Below are positions 12,503-20,848 of a stretch of DNA of 32,000 nucleotides, one piece after another. Each line of letters begins with the position of its first letter. Position 1 is the stretch's first letter. Source of the stretch: Nitrosospira multiformis ATCC 25196. GTDB lineage: Bacteria; Pseudomonadota; Gammaproteobacteria; Burkholderiales; Nitrosomonadaceae. The DNA is taken from positions 1,110,001 through 1,142,000 of the forward strand of contig NC_007614.1 of assembly GCF_000196355.1 (NCBI RefSeq), given 5' to 3'. A program made the translations under genes and the position numbers. A model generated the notes under the pieces. It was not told the origin of the DNA and did no database searches. It worked only from the letters and a program-made list of their open reading frames with translations.

Positions 12503-13741
12503 TCATGGCTTCACAGGTTCTTGCACCTTTGCGGTAGTCGCGCGCTGAACCGCGCCAGTTGGCGCCGGTGTTTGCGCCTTGCGCCGTCGGGCAGAAGCCA
12601 GTCCCAGGGCCGTCAGGCACCCGCACAAGAGCACGCCGATCAACAAGCCCCAGGAAGACTGGGAGTTGCCGGAATAATTCGAAAACTCGCTATAAAGGGG
12701 CGGGCCGGATGCGAACCCGCTGAAGAAAGCGACTGAAACAAAACCGGATGCCGTTGCTATCGGGCCAAATGTGGCATCCCTGATCAACATGCTCATTGCG
12801 ATTGCATTGGTGCCGACGGCGGTGAGGCCCATTCCCACAGCTCCTGCCCAGAGGGGCCAATGACTGTCCGCATTGGCCCTCATCGTCACCGCGATTGCGC
12901 AAGCTGCAATGGCGATGAGCACAATCAGAAGCAGCGATTCGTCTTTCATTCTGGCACCGAGGGGTGTCAATGTTATCCGCGAGAGTATCCCCATCACGCC
13001 GAAGACGGCGATCAAGCTTCCCGCCACCGACAGCGCCATCCCTTGGCGGACGGCAAAGGTCGGCAGGAACGTAACGAAGGCGGAGAGTGCTATACCCACG
13101 CAAAACTGGATGGCCATCAAACGCAGCAGCAGTACATTTGGCAGGGGGACAGTGAAAGCTTTACGCGTTTCCGAGGGTTTCCGCGGAGCGATGAAGGGTG
13201 TCGTAATTCCGAACAGTATCGCTACCGGAACAACGATGCCGAATGCGGCATGCCACCCGTATTGCGTTGCGATGGCGGGAAGAATGAGACCTGCAAAAAG
13301 CGCCGCAAGCTGAACGCCGGATTGCTTGAATCCTACGACTGTCGCCTTTTTCTCCGGTGAAACATGCTGCGCGATCAGTAAATTGGTGACCGGGTTTGCC
13401 AGCGCCTGGGCGATTCCGCAAATGGCAGCCGCTGCAACCAGGGAGTAATAATCTTCAACCGTTGCAATCAGCGCAAAAGCAAGCGCTACGGCGAAGAAGA
13501 GCACTGCCAGCGCTCGGCGTGTCCCGATCCGGTCGACGAACGCGCCTGACCAGAGCGATAGAATGGCCGCGATGCCGAATGCACTCATCACGAGATAACC
13601 CGGCAGTCCGGGCTCGAAGCGCAGATCGCGCACGAGGAATGGTCCAAGCGTGCTGATGGCATACAAGACAAGCATCGGCAGGGCCATGGCAAATACCAGG
13701 ACAATCCTGAACCAGATGCCTGCAAATAGTGATTTAGCCAA
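12503..13741 (-). CDS. MFS transporter (candidate exporter/importer for the cluster product)
   Basis: 412 aa with about 12 hydrophobic segments and typical MFS loop motifs (e.g. FVDRIGTRR between TM2 and TM3). The TTG start overlaps the upstream ACAD stop by 8 nt. Confidence 0.85.
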   Translation of the reverse strand: MAKSLFAGIWFRIVLVFAMALPMLVLYAISTLGPFLVRDLRFEPGLPGYLVMSAFGIAAILSLWSGAFVDRIGTRRALAVLFFAVALAFALIATVEDYYSLVAAAAICGIAQALANPVTNLLIAQHVSPEKKATVVGFKQSGVQLAALFAGLILPAIATQYGWHAAFGIVVPVAILFGITTPFIAPRKPSETRKAFTVPLPNVLLLRLMAIQFCVGIALSAFVTFLPTFAVRQGMALSVAGSLIAVFGVMGILSRITLTPLGARMKDESLLLIVLIAIAACAIAVTMRANADSHWPLWAGAVGMGLTAVGTNAIAMSMLIRDATFGPIATASGFVSVAFFSGFASGPPLYSEFSNYSGNSQSSWGLLIGVLLCGCLTALGLASARRRKAQTPAPTGAVQRATTAKVQEPVKP

Positions 13742-14954
13742 AATGATAAACGTCCTCTTCCTTGAAGAAGTCGATGAGCCGGCGGCCTGTCGAACTGATA
13801 AGCGACTCGTCGGTGCCGTCGAGAATTCGCGACGTGCGCGCTATCCTGTAAATTCCGGAGAGGGGCGTGAGGTCGCTGATGCCTTCAGCACCATAAAGCT
13901 GCACCGCTGAATCGGAGGCAATGCAGAGTGCTTGTGACGCAGCCATTTTGGCGACATTGATCCGCACATCGCTGGGGCATTGAATATCGATTCCGCGTGC
14001 AGCAACGCGAATCAATTCGCGCGCGCTTGCAATAGCCTGATAAGTGTTGGCAATGTGCTGCCTTACGAGCTGCTTGTAAGGCAGCCGGGCTGAAAGGCCG
14101 CGGCGGGAATTGATGCGCATACCCATCAGGTCGAAACATCGTTGCGCCAGTCCCACCCAGTTCATCGCGCGAAGCAGACGGCCGAGACGGAGCCGTTGAC
14201 TCATCAGCTCTGTGCCATTGTCATTTTTGCCCAACCGGTTATATTCGGGGACCTGCACATCGGTGAAAGACATTTCACCCTGGCCCAGAAAACGCCCCAG
14301 TATGGGAATCTGGCGCTCGATACTGAATCCAGGGGAGTTCGTGGGAACAAGGATCATTGAAAGCGTCTGGCGGGTATGGATTTCTTCTTTGCCAGTGCGC
14401 GCCAGAACCGTGACAAAAGTGGCACGGTCGGCATTGCCGACAAACCATTTTCTGCCATTGATCGTCCAGTTTCCGTGCGACAGGTGGGCGGAAGTCGTTA
14501 TCAGCGTGGGAAACGAGCCGCCATGATCGGGCTCGGTCATGCCGTAACTGGGAGTGGCTTCCCCGGCAACCATGGGTTCCAGGAAATTTCTGTGAATTTC
14601 ATCGCTGCCGAACTTCAGGAGCATGTGCGCATCCAGGGCTGAATGGCTGCCAAAGATCGCGGACGAGAACTCTGAGCGTCCTTCCTGCTCGGCTACGATC
14701 AGGTAATCTTCAAGAGAAGCAATTTTTCCGCTGTGGGAGAGCGGATAAAACAGGCCCCAGAGGCCGGCACGCCGTGCTTTTTCGGTCAATTCCGATTGCA
14801 GTTGCGCTGCCGAATCCCCTCCCTCGGCCAGGCGCGGCTCGCAAGGGATGATTACCTTGTCGACGAACTTTCTTACCTCGCACGAAAGAGATCGGGCTGC
14901 TTCGGTATGGGAGGATGCTTGCTCCTGATATGCTTGCAGCATCAATGTGCCCAT
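13734..14954 (-). CDS. Acyl-CoA dehydrogenase family flavoprotein
   Basis: GMTEPDHGGS (the GxTEPxxGS motif), QLYGAEGIS, and the C-terminal RILDGTDE with the Glu at the catalytic-base position. The start overlaps the ligase stop by 13 nt. Confidence 0.85.
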   Translation of the reverse strand: MGTLMLQAYQEQASSHTEAARSLSCEVRKFVDKVIIPCEPRLAEGGDSAAQLQSELTEKARRAGLWGLFYPLSHSGKIASLEDYLIVAEQEGRSEFSSAIFGSHSALDAHMLLKFGSDEIHRNFLEPMVAGEATPSYGMTEPDHGGSFPTLITTSAHLSHGNWTINGRKWFVGNADRATFVTVLARTGKEEIHTRQTLSMILVPTNSPGFSIERQIPILGRFLGQGEMSFTDVQVPEYNRLGKNDNGTELMSQRLRLGRLLRAMNWVGLAQRCFDLMGMRINSRRGLSARLPYKQLVRQHIANTYQAIASARELIRVAARGIDIQCPSDVRINVAKMAASQALCIASDSAVQLYGAEGISDLTPLSGIYRIARTSRILDGTDESLISSTGRRLIDFFKEEDVYHFG

Positions 14955-16603
14955 TCGGGATGACTCCGGTGGGCGGGATGTTCCGTGAATTCGATTTCGG
15001 TAGTCAGCCGCTTCTTATCGATTTTTCCCGCAGGGCTGAGGGGCAGCTGGCGGTAATAGCGCAGGTATTCGGGAAGCTTGCTTGTCTCCAGGCCCTTTTC
15101 ATGGAGAAAACGGGTGAACTGGGAAAGTGACGGACGTTCCGCTCCCTCTCTCGTGACGAGACAGAGGCAAACCCTGTGTCCCAGGTCCGCGTCGGGCACC
15201 GGAACACAGGCTGCGCTGACAACCGCCGGATGGGAAACAGCAATGTTTTCAATTTGAGCGGGACTGATATTGACGCCGCCCCGAATGATGATGTCTTTCT
15301 TGCGGCCGGATAGCACCAGATGGCCCTCTTCATCAATAAGGCCGAGGTCACCGGTATACACCCATCCCTCCTGGTCACGGTACAGGGCGTCGAGATCCGG
15401 GTCATTGACGTACTGCATGGGACTTATCGGACCCCTGGCCGCTATTTCTCCTATGCAACCTTGCGGTACTTCCTGCTTCTGGTCATCGATTATACGAATG
15501 GAACAGATTTCCGGATTGGGCCTTCCCGCCGTCCTGATAATGGTTTCCAGGTCATCATCCAGGGTCGTATGACAATTGACGCCATCGGCAGAACCATACA
15601 AGCTGATGAATCCACATCGGAACGCCTTCGTACATCGGCGAATGGAGGTTTCATCGATTTTCGCGCCGCCGCTGATGATGGCAACCAGGCTGGACGTATC
15701 CGCCTGCGTCAACGCAGGGTCTGCGGCAATGCGTTGAAACATCGTGGGAACGCCCAATATATGCGTGGGCTTCAGTTCCGCGAGGGCTTGAATAGCAGCT
15801 GCAACGTCAAATTGCCGCAGGACAATGAGGGAGCCGCCCAGCCAGGATAAAACCCCGAATGTCGCCGTGGAGCCGAATGCGGTGCCGAGCGGCATCAGGT
15901 AAAGACCCCTGAAAGTCTTTCCTTCGGGATGAATTCGTTGCAGAAATCGCCCTCGTCCGCCCGCCAGCGCGTTGTGAGAATAAGCCACCCATTTGGGCTC
16001 GGATTCCGTGCCGGATGAGATCAGGAAACGGGCAGGTGAATCGGGGCAGACTGTCGGCAGGTCCGGTTCAATGGAGGCGGGCCGGAACAATTCATCCAGT
16101 GCGTGCCAACCGTCTCCGGCTGCGCCATCGACCACGAGGATGCGCAGTGAAAGCAAAGTGGGGCGTATGGATTCGATCAATTCGCAAAGGTCGGTTTTTC
16201 CATATTCGCGCTCGACAATAATTGCACGGGCGTCACAGCGTCTGAGCAGGGACTGGATATCGAGGCGGCCGCGGCCTGGCGGAAAAGGTGCCACGATGGC
16301 TCCAAGCGCGGCCGCCGCCAGGTCGATCGCGCAGCTCCGCCAGTCGTTATGAAGCTGGTATGAGATTACATCGCCCGCAACAATGCCCAATTCCTGGAAA
16401 CTGGTTGCCAGGCGATGGACCTTGTCCAGCAACGCTGCGTAACTGGTGGTATGGTCGAGCGATATTACTGCCGGATTATCCGGCTGTTGCTCCACTCGCT
16501 CGCAAAACAACTCGTACAGGGATTTATTCGGATAGATTCCCTGCCGGGCCCATTGCGCGCGGACCTCGGCGGGGACCATATCCAGGATGCCGGAATGGTT
16601 CAT
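14942..16603 (-). CDS. Adenylate-forming acyl-CoA synthetase / AMP-dependent ligase (ANL superfamily)
   Basis: ISSGTESEPK (the A3 P-loop-like motif), YGSADG, YTGDLGLIDEEGHLVLSGRKKDIIIRGGVNISPAQIE (A7/A8) and PAGKIDKKRL (A10 Lys). There is an ATGA start/stop overlap with the CoA-transferase gene. Confidence 0.9.
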   Translation of the reverse strand: MNHSGILDMVPAEVRAQWARQGIYPNKSLYELFCERVEQQPDNPAVISLDHTTSYAALLDKVHRLATSFQELGIVAGDVISYQLHNDWRSCAIDLAAAALGAIVAPFPPGRGRLDIQSLLRRCDARAIIVEREYGKTDLCELIESIRPTLLSLRILVVDGAAGDGWHALDELFRPASIEPDLPTVCPDSPARFLISSGTESEPKWVAYSHNALAGGRGRFLQRIHPEGKTFRGLYLMPLGTAFGSTATFGVLSWLGGSLIVLRQFDVAAAIQALAELKPTHILGVPTMFQRIAADPALTQADTSSLVAIISGGAKIDETSIRRCTKAFRCGFISLYGSADGVNCHTTLDDDLETIIRTAGRPNPEICSIRIIDDQKQEVPQGCIGEIAARGPISPMQYVNDPDLDALYRDQEGWVYTGDLGLIDEEGHLVLSGRKKDIIIRGGVNISPAQIENIAVSHPAVVSAACVPVPDADLGHRVCLCLVTREGAERPSLSQFTRFLHEKGLETSKLPEYLRYYRQLPLSPAGKIDKKRLTTEIEFTEHPAHRSHPEWAH

Positions 16604-18543
16604 TTAAATCTCCAGGGAGAATTGACTTGGGTATAAGAACCGGAGGTCAGCCCTGGTTGCAGATGCGCCAGGGTTTGAAGGTCGACAAGATCTTCGATGA
16701 CGACGGCGGAGGGAATGCCTGCGTGCTGGAAGAGTTCAACCCATTGGTCAGCCGTTTTTGAGAGGAACACTTCGCTCAAGCATTGCTGGAAGCCATTGTT
16801 TTCAATGCCAGGAGTAAGGTCGAGGACTTCCGCGAGCCGTAATACCGTATCCACATCGGGGCATTCGATTGCAATCCTGCCCTGCCTTGTGGCGTAAACG
16901 TCATTGATGATACTTGTCGAAGGTTTTGAACCGGAAGCCGGCAAACTGTATATATCCCGGAAATCCTCGGCACACAAAAGTGTTGCTGCGCTCATGAGCG
17001 AGGAAGTGACCTTCGCCCCCACATTGTTCATGCACCGGTTAAGCAGTGCAATCGTGACACCTTGAGCCGCTACCACGCCTCCGAGCACATCCAGGACGGT
17101 GAACAAGGAGCCGCCACGGCTGCTGCCACCTCCTCCGACCTTTCCTGCCACTCCCGAATAGGCTTGAGCCATGAAATCCGTTCCGGGCATTGAATTTGAA
17201 GAGACGTGCTCGGCACAATCGGTGGCCCATCCGCCTGCATACGCATAAATCAGGGAGGGGTTGATTGCCGCCAGATCGCCATGATCGAGATTGAGCAGTA
17301 CCGCTTTGCCCGGCGCCCAATTGTGCAGAAAAATATCGGCGTGCCGTGCCAGCTCCCTGATTTCTGTTTTTCCAGCTGCGGATTTGATATCGATTTCGCG
17401 CACCGTTTTGAGATGGTTGAGCGCCTGGAAACGCGCGGAGCAACCTGCAGCCATGGGCGGCATTCCTCGCAGCGGATCGCCGCCTGGCGGCTCTATCCTG
17501 ATAACGGTTGCCCCGAGGAGTGCGAGCAAATGCCCGGCGAGAGGACCTTGTATGCGCCGGCATGATTCGATCACTGTGAATCCGCTTAACGGCAAATCAT
17601 CCTCCGGCAATGCGCCGCCCGCGGGGAGCAGGTATTCTCCATTCGGTTTTGGTTCGGATGAGAACGACGAAAACGCCCACGGGCCTTGCTGCCAGATTTG
17701 TCTGGCATCGTCGTCCTGTGCCCTGTCATCGATCGAGCGGACGGGGCAGATAGCCATGCCGGTTCTCGCACACACTTGCGAGATGCGGTGATAGGTCAGC
17801 CTCGAGATAGCGCGGGACAGCTCATCCGGCAATGGCGAGGCCGCTTTTGCGTATCGCAGCAGAAAAACTCTCCATCCTTTTCCCGCCGCTGCTGAACTTA
17901 CACCCAGTGTTGACCAGAATCTTTGCCAGGGGCCGGCGTCAAGTGTTTCGAGTTCAAAAATGACTCCGTCCAGGGAGACAAAGGGAGGGCAAGCGGGGGA
18001 TGAGCCAGGAAGGGGACGAGTGGCTTCAGCGGCCTCGGTGGTTTCAGGAGACTCCGAAGCAGTCGCCCCGGCGATATACTGACTCATGCTCAACAAGCCT
18101 GCGGCTGCCATCGAGACAGTACTGCTGGAAACAGGCAGTCCCCGCAGCCGGGCAATGGAAGCGGCGATGCTGCCCTGAAGCGCCAGTGCCGCAGTCAAGG
18201 TCGAAACGTAGTTCAGCCCCAGAGGTTTCGGCTGCCGATGGCTTCGCCCGTGCACCGACATCAATCCGCATGCTGCCTGCATGATGTTTTCGCTTACGGC
18301 GGCCTGCCGGAAAGGATCTTCCCATCGGGTGATCTCACATGTGACAGGGGCGGTGTGGGGTGTTTCGAATTCGAAGCACAATGTCTCGTCGCCTGCACAA
18401 TTTCCATCTGCTACGGTTTGCATCCCCAATGCTTCGGACTGATAAAGAAACGAGGAGGCTATGGGGGCAAAATCAGGGGTTATGCTTTTCGGACCCTTCA
18501 TCACACAACCCGTCAATGTTCGATTCATGCTCATGTTTCTCAC
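16600..18543 (-). CDS. Type III (CaiB/BaiF) CoA-transferase, full copy preceded by a fused N-terminal partial copy
   Basis: The C-terminal half has the full family pattern: LSGFTVIESCRRIQGPLAGHLLALLGATVIRIEPPGGDPLR, GTDFMAQAYSGVAG (catalytic Asp context), YATRQGRIAIE and SPWRF. The N-terminal ~300 aa repeats the middle and C-terminal blocks (SENIMQAACGLMSVHG..P.PLG...STLTAALALQGSIAA, FVSLDGVIFELE..GPWQRFWSTLG) but lacks the Rossmann-like N-terminal block. The GTG start is uncertain (18543, 18534 or 18528). Confidence 0.85.
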   Translation of the reverse strand: MRNMSMNRTLTGCVMKGPKSITPDFAPIASSFLYQSEALGMQTVADGNCAGDETLCFEFETPHTAPVTCEITRWEDPFRQAAVSENIMQAACGLMSVHGRSHRQPKPLGLNYVSTLTAALALQGSIAASIARLRGLPVSSSTVSMAAAGLLSMSQYIAGATASESPETTEAAEATRPLPGSSPACPPFVSLDGVIFELETLDAGPWQRFWSTLGVSSAAAGKGWRVFLLRYAKAASPLPDELSRAISRLTYHRISQVCARTGMAICPVRSIDDRAQDDDARQIWQQGPWAFSSFSSEPKPNGEYLLPAGGALPEDDLPLSGFTVIESCRRIQGPLAGHLLALLGATVIRIEPPGGDPLRGMPPMAAGCSARFQALNHLKTVREIDIKSAAGKTEIRELARHADIFLHNWAPGKAVLLNLDHGDLAAINPSLIYAYAGGWATDCAEHVSSNSMPGTDFMAQAYSGVAGKVGGGGSSRGGSLFTVLDVLGGVVAAQGVTIALLNRCMNNVGAKVTSSLMSAATLLCAEDFRDIYSLPASGSKPSTSIINDVYATRQGRIAIECPDVDTVLRLAEVLDLTPGIENNGFQQCLSEVFLSKTADQWVELFQHAGIPSAVVIEDLVDLQTLAHLQPGLTSGSYTQVNSPWRFK

Positions 18544-18564
18544 GGGACAGGAATAATTTCGGAC

Positions 18565-18837
18565 TCAACCCCCTGCAACGGCAGGCAGGATGGTCAGCAA
18601 GTCGCCATCAGTGAGGCTGGTCGAGAGGCCCTCGCTAAAGCGAATATCGTTGTCGTTCACATAGATATTGACGAAGCGGTGTGCTTCGCCCCCGGTGATC
18701 AGTTTTTCCTTGACGCCAGGGTACTGTTGTTCCATCCGTTCAATGGCATCGAGCACATTGGAGCCATCCACTTCGATACGCTTCTGGTTGTCGGTAAGGG
18801 GTCTGAGTATGGTCGGGATACTTATGGTTATCGGCAT
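18565..18837 (-). CDS. CysO-type MoaD/ThiS-family sulfur carrier protein ending in Gly-Gly
   Basis: MPITISIPTILRP...HRFVNIYVNDNDIRFSEGL...LLTILPAVAGG-stop. This is the beta-grasp carrier pattern, and as I recall it, very close to mycobacterial CysO (SIPTILRP, HRFVNIYVND, TILPAVAGG). I prefer ATG 18837 with SD GGAGA over the track start 18867. Confidence 0.9.
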   Translation of the reverse strand: MPITISIPTILRPLTDNQKRIEVDGSNVLDAIERMEQQYPGVKEKLITGGEAHRFVNIYVNDNDIRFSEGLSTSLTDGDLLTILPAVAGG

Positions 18838-19042
18838 ATTTATTTCTCCATATTTGGTTTTAAACACGAAAAGTATTAATAAGGATTTAAATTCGCATTA
18901 ACGCCCTTATTCAACATAAAAGCGTATCGCGTTCATCTAATTGGCAGGTTCAAGCGTTTTCACGCGTGCCTCAATCCCGCTACCACCTGCCAATATTCCT
19001 GATCAACCTGTTTGCGAAAAATCGAACCCTCCAGAAGGCGCC

Positions 19043-19495
19043 CTAGGCTACCATTGCCTCCATCGATAACTCCCATTCCGCCTTATATGAATTTATCATC
19101 CTGATTCTCTCTTCGGTGACCATTCCATCGAGAATGCGGAAGCTGCGGATTTCTTCTCCGTATGCGGGATCGGTTGGAACAATGACATAATGGGATTGGG
19201 GCTGGGACGCGTATTGCACGTCGGTACGGCTTGGATAGGCTGGAGTGTGGGTATGGGAGTGATAAATCACGATGGGTTCTTCGCCACGTGCCTCCATCTC
19301 TCTCCAGACCTGTAGCTGCTCTTGCGGATCGAACTTGAAAAATGTTTCGGACTGGGCTGCATTGCGCATCGGGATGAGGCGCAGGGGAAGATTCGATTTT
19401 TCCGGACCGGCAATGACCCCGCAGATTTCAAAAGGATGATCTTTATGTGCCTGAGCAAGCATTGCTTCAACGAGCTTGGCGTGTATGGTCAGCAT
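19043..19495 (-). CDS. JAMM/MPN+ metalloprotease (Mec+/QbsD-like)
   Basis: It carries the upstream Glu (FEICGVIAG) and a complete JAMM motif HSHTHTPAYPSRTD (HxHx7Sx2D). I prefer ATG 19495 with SD GGAGGA over the track start 19522. Confidence 0.9.
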   Translation of the reverse strand: MLTIHAKLVEAMLAQAHKDHPFEICGVIAGPEKSNLPLRLIPMRNAAQSETFFKFDPQEQLQVWREMEARGEEPIVIYHSHTHTPAYPSRTDVQYASQPQSHYVIVPTDPAYGEEIRSFRILDGMVTEERIRMINSYKAEWELSMEAMVA

Positions 19496-19675
19496 GATTC
19501 TTATCCTCCATGATGTTGACATTAATCAGCATATTCCCGGTCGAGAAAAATATAATTCCGTCATTGTGTGCCTCATCCGGAATCCAGAGGTTTTCGCATA
19601 TGGATTGCCAGGTTAGCCAGGCTTCGCCCGACGTCCGGGTATGTCGGTTGGAGCTCTACCCTAGTGACGACTCGC

Positions 19676-20848
19676 TCAATAACTTGGCAATGTCTGATCC
19701 ACATCCCTGATCCACGCCAGGATTCCGCCATCCAGGCTTTTGACATTCGTAAACCCCCGCTTGCGCATCTCCATGAGAATATCCCGGGACCGCACGCCCA
19801 TTTTGCAGTGAAGCACGATAAGCTCATCCTTGTTCAATCGGGCTAAAACTTCCTCGGACATCATCCTGTCCTTGGGAATATGATTTGCCCCTTCGATATG
19901 CACGATGTTCCATTCCTGGATTCCGCGAACATCGATAAGCTGCATGGCTACGCTGCAATCCCGCATCTCTTTCAATTCCAGGGCGCTGATCGTGGGTACG
20001 TTCGGTTTGCCGCCCGTCGTTGACTGCGGGAGGCCGCAAAATGCCTGGTAATCGATCAGCCGGGTGATCGGTGTCCTGACCGGGGCTCGCCGCAGCGGGA
20101 TGAATCTGAAGGTCATATCCAGGGCATCGTAGACAGCAAGCCTGCCGAGCAGGGTATTGCCCAGACCGGTAATCAATTTGATGGCCTCGGTAGCCATGAT
20201 CGCGCCGATGGATGCGCACAGTATGCCCAGCACGCCGCCTTCCGCACACGACGGGGCCATTTCGGGCGGCGGGGGTTCGGGATAAAGGTCGCGGTAGTTC
20301 AGGCCGCGTCCTCCTGGCGCATCTTCCCAGAAGACCGAGGCCTGCCCTTCGAAGCGGAAAATGGACCCCCAGACATAGGGCTTTCCAGCCAGCACGCAGG
20401 CATCGTTGACGAGATAGCGGGTGGAGAAGTTATCCGTTCCGTCTATTACCAGATCGTAGTCCGATATGATGTCAATAGCATTTGTTGTTTCGAGTCGTTC
20501 ATCGTGAATCCGAACCTGGATATAGGGATTCAGGGCCTTGACCGAGTCCTGCGCACTCCGGCATTTGGGTCTGCCGATATCCTGCTGCCGATGAATGACC
20601 TGCCGCTGTAGATTGGATTCATCAACAATATCGAAATCGATAATGCCCAAGGTTCCCACGCCGGCTGCGGCCAGATAGAGGAGCGTCGGCGATCCCAGCC
20701 CTCCGGCGCCGATTACCAGGACCTTGCTGTTCTTGAGACGCTGCTGCCCTTCCAGACCGACATCCGGAATCAGCAGATGGCGGCTGTAGCGCGAAATTTC
20801 TTCTTTACTCAATTCTTCCGAGGGATGTACCAGCGGTGATAGCTGCAT
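19676..20848 (-). CDS. moeZ: MoeZ/MoeBR-type E1-like adenylyltransferase fused to a rhodanese sulfurtransferase domain
   Basis: RYSRHLLIPDVGLEGQQRL..VLVIGAGGLGSP is the ThiF/MoeB nucleotide loop. CAEGGVLG is present, and the C-terminal rhodanese domain has the active-site loop HCKMGVRS. SD GGAGG lies before the ATG. Confidence 0.9.
   Translation of the reverse strand: MQLSPLVHPSEELSKEEISRYSRHLLIPDVGLEGQQRLKNSKVLVIGAGGLGSPTLLYLAAAGVGTLGIIDFDIVDESNLQRQVIHRQQDIGRPKCRSAQDSVKALNPYIQVRIHDERLETTNAIDIISDYDLVIDGTDNFSTRYLVNDACVLAGKPYVWGSIFRFEGQASVFWEDAPGGRGLNYRDLYPEPPPPEMAPSCAEGGVLGILCASIGAIMATEAIKLITGLGNTLLGRLAVYDALDMTFRFIPLRRAPVRTPITRLIDYQAFCGLPQSTTGGKPNVPTISALELKEMRDCSVAMQLIDVRGIQEWNIVHIEGANHIPKDRMMSEEVLARLNKDELIVLHCKMGVRSRDILMEMRKRGFTNVKSLDGGILAWIRDVDQTLPSY

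Follow-up and report, generated by a model that had tools for sequence, protein, structure and literature searches.

The pdtI gene and its operon

We analyzed a 32,000-nucleotide stretch of Nitrosospira multiformis ATCC 25196 (NC_007614.1, positions 1,110,001 to 1,142,000; hereafter the window, whose numbering is used throughout) and in particular one reverse-strand gene in it, pdtI, that encodes a protein with two coenzyme A (CoA)-transferase modules. This gene is part of an operon of genes for a TonB receptor, a MoeZ-rhodanese protein, a JAB protease, a ThiS-like carrier, PdtI, PdtJ, an acyl-CoA dehydrogenase, and a major facilitator superfamily (MFS) transporter. The genes for the E1-rhodanese, JAB, carrier, CaiB-like transferase, and adenosine monophosphate (AMP)-forming ligase all run in the same direction between 14942 and 20848 (Table 1). 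Iyer, Burroughs and Aravind (2006) described a gene neighborhood, class 4a or 'siderophore biosynthesis', that is made up of PdtH (ThiS/MoaD-like), PdtF (E1 with rhodanese), PdtG (JAB), PdtI (CaiB-like CoA transferase), and PdtJ (AMP ligase), and N. multiformis is named there among its carriers (PMC1779556). All five components of such a pdt-type cluster are encoded together in the window.

Table 1. Features of the pdt-type locus. Positions are those of the window.
Feature	Position	Strand	Basis or remark
PdtI/PtmU4-type two-module type III CoA-transferase gene	16600..18543	–	647 amino acids counted from GTG
N-module: slimmed family III fold copy without a recognizable CoA site, Glu85 at the Asp position	17662..18543	–	Pfam, hhalign, AlphaFold2, VIA, Foldseek
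Glu85 codon GAA, at the catalytic-Asp position of the N-module	18289..18291	–	hhalign to Asp456; codon checked
Inter-module linker, residues 295–316	17596..17661	–	Sequence and length variable, low model confidence
C-module: complete family III CoA-transferase with Q-G-P CoA-site motif and Asp456	16603..17595	–	PF02515, fold search
Asp456 codon GAT, catalytic-type Asp of the C-module	17176..17178	–	Counterpart of PtmU4 Asp430 and Frc Asp169
PdtJ/PtmA3-type acyl-CoA (AMP-forming) ligase, second gene of the thioacid cassette	14942..16603	–	PF00501 + PF13193
Sulfur-donor genes upstream of pdtI	18565..20848	–	Pfam + NCBIfam
MoeZ-type E1 with rhodanese	19676..20848	–	Pfam/NCBIfam
JAMM/JAB protease	19043..19522	–	Pfam/NCBIfam
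ThiS/MoaD-type carrier, ends ...AVAGG	18565..18867	–	Pfam/NCBIfam, C-terminus inspected

The open reading frame (ORF) of pdtI has 647 codons from its GTG and zero internal stops according to both the ORF list and the translation. The original prediction, which was made from the DNA alone, had described it as a type III CoA-transferase fused to a truncated second copy and had quoted two motifs, and both are present as described: SENIMQAACGLMSVHG at residues 84–99, which includes Glu85, and GTDFMAQAYSG at residues 454–464, which contains Asp456. Translation probably begins at an ATG at 18534 or 18528 rather than at the GTG at 18543 because homologs open with MSMN... or MN.PL.GC. The 647-residue protein matches one database protein exactly (100%) and named N. 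multiformis proteins at 90–91% identity, and in the organism's own 3.23-Mb genome the PdtI-type gene occurs as a single copy without stops. With Pfam, the whole protein matches CoA-transferase family III (PF02515) with 227 bits in two stretches.

The chain is unusually long for its family, and this is the only point that speaks for a long ORF produced artificially from two genes, either by a sequencing frameshift or by a lost stop codon. The frame is open without stops, and more than 100 relatives are of comparable length (620–645 amino acids), align with 99–100% query coverage, and have 47–100% identity. The genera represented are Nitrosospira, Nitrosovibrio, Nitrosomonas, Methylobacter, Methylosinus, Ralstonia, Hahella, Halomonas, Pseudomonas, and Burkholderia. 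An exhaustive profile-free search returned 227 clusters (50% identity) at E ≤ 1e-30. The two-module architecture also occurs in many Actinobacteria, and actinobacterial relatives at 35–47% identity align over residues ~60–646. In addition, AlphaFold2 treats the chain as one compact unit; the whole-chain model, calculated with 73 aligned relatives, has a mean predicted local distance difference test score (pLDDT) of 92 and a predicted template modeling score (pTM) of 0.94. We consider the chance of an artifact to be negligible and rejected this reading because the full-length protein is conserved across relatives. Thus, the view in the original prediction that this is a single gene was upheld.

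Two unequal family III modules

The C-module (residues 317–647) is a complete family III CoA-transferase, as had been proposed. Residues 319–615 match the PF02515 profile from position 1 to position 311 with 185.7 bits, and residues 314–647 of the AlphaFold2 model superpose nearly end to end on solved family III enzymes in VIA. The best structural match is SUGCT (9br7; Z 24.2, root mean square deviation 2.9, 326 aligned residues), and Rv3272, YfdE, Frc, YfdW, CaiB, and MCR give similar matches (Z 20–24). A sequence search of the PDB found relatives of the C-half only, all of them one-domain proteins (best 84 bits), and no two-module structure by sequence. In this search pGTDFmaQAySG was aligned to PGYDFVVQAESG of formyl-CoA transferase 10uh. 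The equivalence of Asp456 to Asp430 of PtmU4, a characterized relative considered below, is motif-based.

The N-module (residues 1–294) is more diverged. Scanned alone, its residues 77–281 match PF02515 positions 127–324 with 45.6 bits (E 6.8e-12), which exceeds the curated cut-off of 23.3 bits for this profile and lies well above chance. Because the match begins at profile position 127, sequence alone reveals just the middle and C-terminal blocks of this copy. The recognizable Rossmann-like CoA-binding section at the N-terminus of the family, with its Q-G-P motif region, is missing. The catalytic Asp with which the active-site helix of canonical family III enzymes starts is replaced by Glu85.

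Structure prediction points to a slightly different description of this half. When modeled alone, the N-half has an AlphaFold2 pLDDT of 89. In a VIA wide search against 48,161 representative chains, run with no Foldseek pre-filter, family III CoA-transferases took the first seven places (Z 11.8–13.0, 239–255 aligned residues), and the next unrelated fold had a Z of 4.5. Foldseek agrees with this (E 5.5e-7). Residues 3–294 of the model span chain residues 2 to ~360 of family III enzymes. In place of the usual N-terminal part, residues 6–72 are modeled as a reduced unit, in which residues 14–72 form a short beta-alpha-beta-beta-beta unit as compared with ~115 residues in the C-module. Because the N-half model aligns to entire family III chains, the N-half is, as modeled, the full family III fold in slimmed form and not a clean N-terminal truncation. 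The statement in the original prediction that this half repeats only the middle and C-terminal blocks therefore holds at the level of sequence, but the clean truncation that it implied does not; the proposed similarity of the N-terminal ~300 amino acids to family III enzymes stands on profiles as well as on fold.

A direct BLASTP comparison of the N-half with the C-half found nothing (E 19); the duplication is too old for this method, and profile and fold methods were therefore needed. Alignment with hhalign of two half profiles, built from 22 relatives, gave a probability of 93% and an E-value of 2.6e-7. This alignment pairs Glu85 with Asp456, as predicted, and the terminal GPWAF with SPWSF. 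On this profile and model evidence, the N-half is a true, though diverged, module of family III that is joined to a complete one. The two modules are separated by a linker that is gappy in the alignment, with a mean column conservation of 0.15 and a pLDDT of 57–62. The whole-chain pTM speaks for halves that are packed closely and in a fixed way in the model, and a single-chain pseudo-dimer of the two modules, as the original prediction had suggested, is a reasonable interpretation that is compatible with this value.

We then compared conservation along the chain in 73 full-length relatives with identities down to 27%. The column of Glu85 holds Glu in 71 relatives and Asp in 2, and the column of Asp456 holds Asp in 67 and Glu in 6. 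In the helix that follows Glu85, every relative has Q89, A90, and G93, at least 93% have H98 and G99, and 89% have R100. The number of columns that are at least 90% conserved differs strongly between two pairs of equivalent parts of the modules. In the N-module, there is 1 such column in residues 1–72, 11 in 73–185, and 16 in 186–294. The C-module has 40 in residues 317–440, 11 in 441–530, and 3 in 531–647. Thus, the CoA-binding section is the best-kept part of the C-module but is lost from the N-module (40 columns versus 1), whereas the small-domain block is far better kept in the N-module than in the C-module (16 columns versus 3).

Each active site of a canonical family III dimer is formed where the large domain of one subunit meets the small domain of its partner. 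Taken with this geometry, the asymmetry in conservation fits an enzyme with one live site, formed by the large part of the C-module and the small part of the N-module, plus one CoA-less pseudo-site. As a separate observation, the few relatives with Glu at the live-site position of the C-module (6 of 73) or Asp at position 85 (2 of 73) may reflect misalignment, inactive copies, or a tolerated variant. The natural Glu residues at column 456 contrast with the D430E substitution in PtmU4, which removed most of the activity (PMC6006322).

A predicted sulfur-transfer enzyme

The closest characterized model for this protein is PtmU4, which together with PtmA3 was described as a 'thioacid cassette' (Dong et al., 2018; PMC6006322). 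PtmU4 contains two CoA-transferase domains of type III with a conserved Asp in the C-terminal one and is ~36% identical to QbsK, OrfI (pdt), and YtkF. It forms a thioacid from an acyl-CoA when supplied with a carrier protein, PtmS4, and thiosulfate, or with hydrosulfide. Replacement of its C-domain Asp (D430A/E/N) lowered activity 125–400-fold, and this residue is thus required for thioacid formation; mutagenesis was confined to it. The same study counted 2,401 two-domain homologs and found that 160 of 175 members of the thioacid group are encoded at most two genes from a ligase. Its Supplementary Data 2 contains five N. multiformis homologs, one of them labeled ATCC 25196 and each with a ligase partner, as well as other Nitrosospira and Nitrosomonas strains (PMC6006322). 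A full-text search of the literature for studies that followed up PtmU4 or the thioacid cassette turned up nothing but Dong et al. (2018) itself.

The protein studied here has the same tandem family III modules in a chain of ~600–650 amino acids, the same Asp in the C-module, and an adjoining PtmA3-type ligase, and it is placed in the published group. By analogy, the two enzymes would also share a sulfur source, a carrier of the ThiS/MoaD type that a MoeZ-type enzyme loads. They differ in their substrates and in that the genes for the carrier, E1, and JAMM proteins of Streptomyces lie outside the cluster, whereas N. multiformis has them directly upstream. Although the original prediction treated the architecture as unusual, published work defines the PtmU4/PdtI family by it (PMC6006322). 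The two-module architecture, the C-module Asp, the pairing with a ligase, and the occurrence in N. multiformis are all already published (PMC6006322, PMC1779556). The gene is real and ordinary for its family, a cataloged member of a published architecture. What the present analysis adds is the view of the N-module as the full fold in slimmed form, in which the Asp position is almost invariably Glu and the small-domain block has remained much more conserved than its C-module counterpart.

Together, these data support the idea that the gene encodes the N. multiformis ortholog of PdtI, a two-module sulfur-transfer enzyme with one live site that would act in a pdt-type thiocarboxylate metallophore operon; drawing on the sequence and on the analogy with PtmU4, we give this reading a probability of roughly 0.8. 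The reaction, which was demonstrated for PtmU4 and is predicted for N. multiformis PdtI, would convert an acyl-CoA and a carrier thiocarboxylate to a thiocarboxylic acid and CoA. In the mechanism that PtmU4 suggests, the translationally coupled PdtJ-like ligase would first make the CoA thioester of a carboxylic acid precursor. This acyl-CoA would bind in the intact Rossmann-like CoA site of the C-module, where Asp456 would be the catalytic carboxylate. The ThiS-like carrier, which the MoeZ/rhodanese enzyme encoded just upstream would load, would then supply sulfur from its C-terminal thiocarboxylate, and thiocarboxylic acid and free CoA would be released. Our own addition to this scheme, which draws on the conservation asymmetry and on general knowledge of the fold, is that the N-module, with its recognizable CoA-binding N-terminal section gone, would stand in for the second subunit of a normally obligate homodimer. 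Its conserved residues 186–294 would reach over the interface between the modules to complete the one live active site, much as a partner subunit does in canonical enzymes. The result would be one live site and one pseudo-site that lacks CoA but retains Glu85.

Two observations weigh against this reading. One is that Glu85 and the helix Q-A-x-x-G-x-M-x-V-H-G-R are as conserved as the motif of the live site, which exceeds what is expected for a purely structural relic. How close to invariant Glu85, His98, and Arg100 are is the single feature that does not follow readily from a purely structural N-module. The other is that the native carrier gave PtmU4 only a ~3-fold rate enhancement in vitro (PMC6006322), and the details of sulfur delivery are therefore unsettled even for the model enzyme.

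The first of these observations leads to a different possibility, which is that the N-module has a second, CoA-independent functional site, so that the enzyme would have two different working sites and not one live and one dead site. A docking surface for the carrier thiocarboxylate had also been among the suggestions of the original prediction. In such an enzyme, Glu85-x3-Gln-Ala-x2-Gly...His98-Gly-Arg100 together with residues 186–294 could receive or activate the Gly-Gly-thiocarboxylate tail of the carrier or could process an intermediate of the acyl-thioanhydride type. A Glu85 at least as conserved as Asp456 (71 versus 67 of 73) next to the invariant Q89, A90, and G93 agrees with this, and P0011, a natural ThiS-linker-PdtI fusion described below, would fit a carrier and an enzyme that touch each other. 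However, the conserved helix could be mere packing at the module interface, and nowhere is the protein less conserved than in residues 531–647 of the C-module, which would be the partner of the pseudo-site in the canonical geometry. The motif persists in actinobacterial members, whose carrier genes lie elsewhere, so gene linkage gives no signal that separates the two ideas. On balance we regard a second working site as unlikely. If it is true, PdtI/PtmU4 enzymes would be hetero-functional single-chain dimers. The N-module as described here is a concrete target for mutagenesis to learn how sulfur reaches the acyl-CoA in this class of enzymes.

The original prediction had offered another rationale for two sites, which was that they would make sense if the product is a bis-thiocarboxylate such as PDTC; both carboxylates of a dipicolinate-type precursor would then be thiolated. 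The operon is indeed of the pdt type, with the PdtF/G/H/I/J order, and PDTC carries two thiocarboxylates. However, the same layout and the same Glu/Asp asymmetry are found throughout the thioacid group and thus also in the PtmU4, QbsK, and YtkF pathways, the products of which have one thioacid or thioester (PMC6006322). Moreover, the N-module has no recognizable CoA-binding section, with a Pfam match only from profile position 127 and a single conserved column in residues 1–72. We rejected this rationale since mono-thioacid pathways share the architecture, and we consider it highly improbable.

The order of the genes for E1-rhodanese, JAB, carrier, transferase, and ligase is identical to that of the systems with PdtI/OrfI (the pdt cluster of Pseudomonas stutzeri KC and P. 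putida, PDTC) and QbsK (P. fluorescens, thioquinolobactin). Pseudomonas loci have 44–52% identity and the same seven-gene order, which includes the acyl-CoA dehydrogenase and the MFS transporter. The N. multiformis locus differs in the modest identity of only ~50% and in the TonB receptor gene upstream. When the comparison is extended to the canonical one-domain enzymes Frc, YfdW, YfdE, CaiB, SUGCT, Rv3272, and MCR, the C-module shares their fold, the Asp motif, and the Q-G-P motif, whereas the N-module shares the overall fold (Z 12–13) but has Glu for Asp and a minimized N-terminal section. Canonical enzymes are homodimers of ~360–430-residue subunits with two equivalent sites, whereas the 'subunits' of PdtI are fused and unequal. 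The reactions also differ: canonical family III enzymes transfer CoA between acids, whereas the characterized relative PtmU4 carries out thiolysis to a thioacid. Another single-chain enzyme with tandem family III modules falls outside the one-domain and the other two-domain groups in the published tree and has a different function (PMC6006322).

A search of the literature for a thiocarboxylate siderophore of Nitrosospira found nothing specific. Judging from their gene content, ammonia oxidizers appear to carry a complete, tightly coupled thiocarboxylate-metallophore operon.

Gene neighborhood and fused forms

To see which genes accompany pdtI, we surveyed 80 genome loci with 8-kb flanks. An AMP-forming ligase gene is directly downstream of the transferase gene in 77 of these, whereas the acyl-CoA dehydrogenase has homologs in 54 loci and the MFS transporter in 52. 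MoeZ, JAB, and ThiS occur together in 25 loci, all of which are proteobacterial with the gene order seen in N. multiformis. Neither MoeZ nor ThiS homologs were found within 8 kb in actinobacterial loci, and a JAB homolog is present in a single one (L032). A homolog of the TonB receptor is encoded in only 7 of the 80 loci. The fusion is thus not tied specifically to sulfur-carrier genes: with 77 loci for the ligase versus 25 for the carrier genes, the constant partner of the two-module fusion is the acyl-CoA ligase and not the sulfur carrier.

Within the operon, the genes are packed tightly. The ATG of the ligase gene overlaps the stop codon of pdtI (ATGA at 16603–16600), the pdtJ and acyl-CoA dehydrogenase ORFs overlap by 13 nucleotides (14942–14954), and the acyl-CoA dehydrogenase and MFS ORFs overlap by 8 nucleotides (13734–13741). 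Homologs of the dehydrogenase and the MFS transporter (12503–14954 in the window) accompany the transferase-ligase pair even in many Actinobacteria without nearby carrier genes. As a speculation, the acyl-CoA dehydrogenase might oxidize a CoA-bound precursor. Although no cap follows the terminal Gly-Gly of the ThiS-like carrier, the JAB/JAMM protease gene next to it has been kept intact.

Several fused forms of the transferase were also observed. The metagenomic protein P0011 (JGI; 737 amino acids, 70% identical) joins a ThiS-like carrier to a whole PdtI (PF02597 + PF02515) through 13 linker residues that follow ...AVAGG, and its fusion point corresponds to 18543–18567 of the window. To be usable, the carrier part of such a protein would have to be cut off behind Gly-Gly, and the neighboring JAMM protease would be suited to this task. 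The contig is 4.4 kb long, and the fusion may also reflect a lost stop codon. Four proteins of the representative library (P0151, P0197, P0230, and P0163) are further fused two-module transferases. The forms found are PdtI with an AMP ligase (1145 amino acids), PdtI with an AMP ligase and an O-methyltransferase (1545 amino acids), PdtI with a methyltransferase (963 amino acids), and a biotin carboxylase and biotinyl carrier with PdtI (1326 amino acids). Database matches that cover one half only, such as P0122, P0223, and P0267, may be gene fragments from short metagenome contigs.

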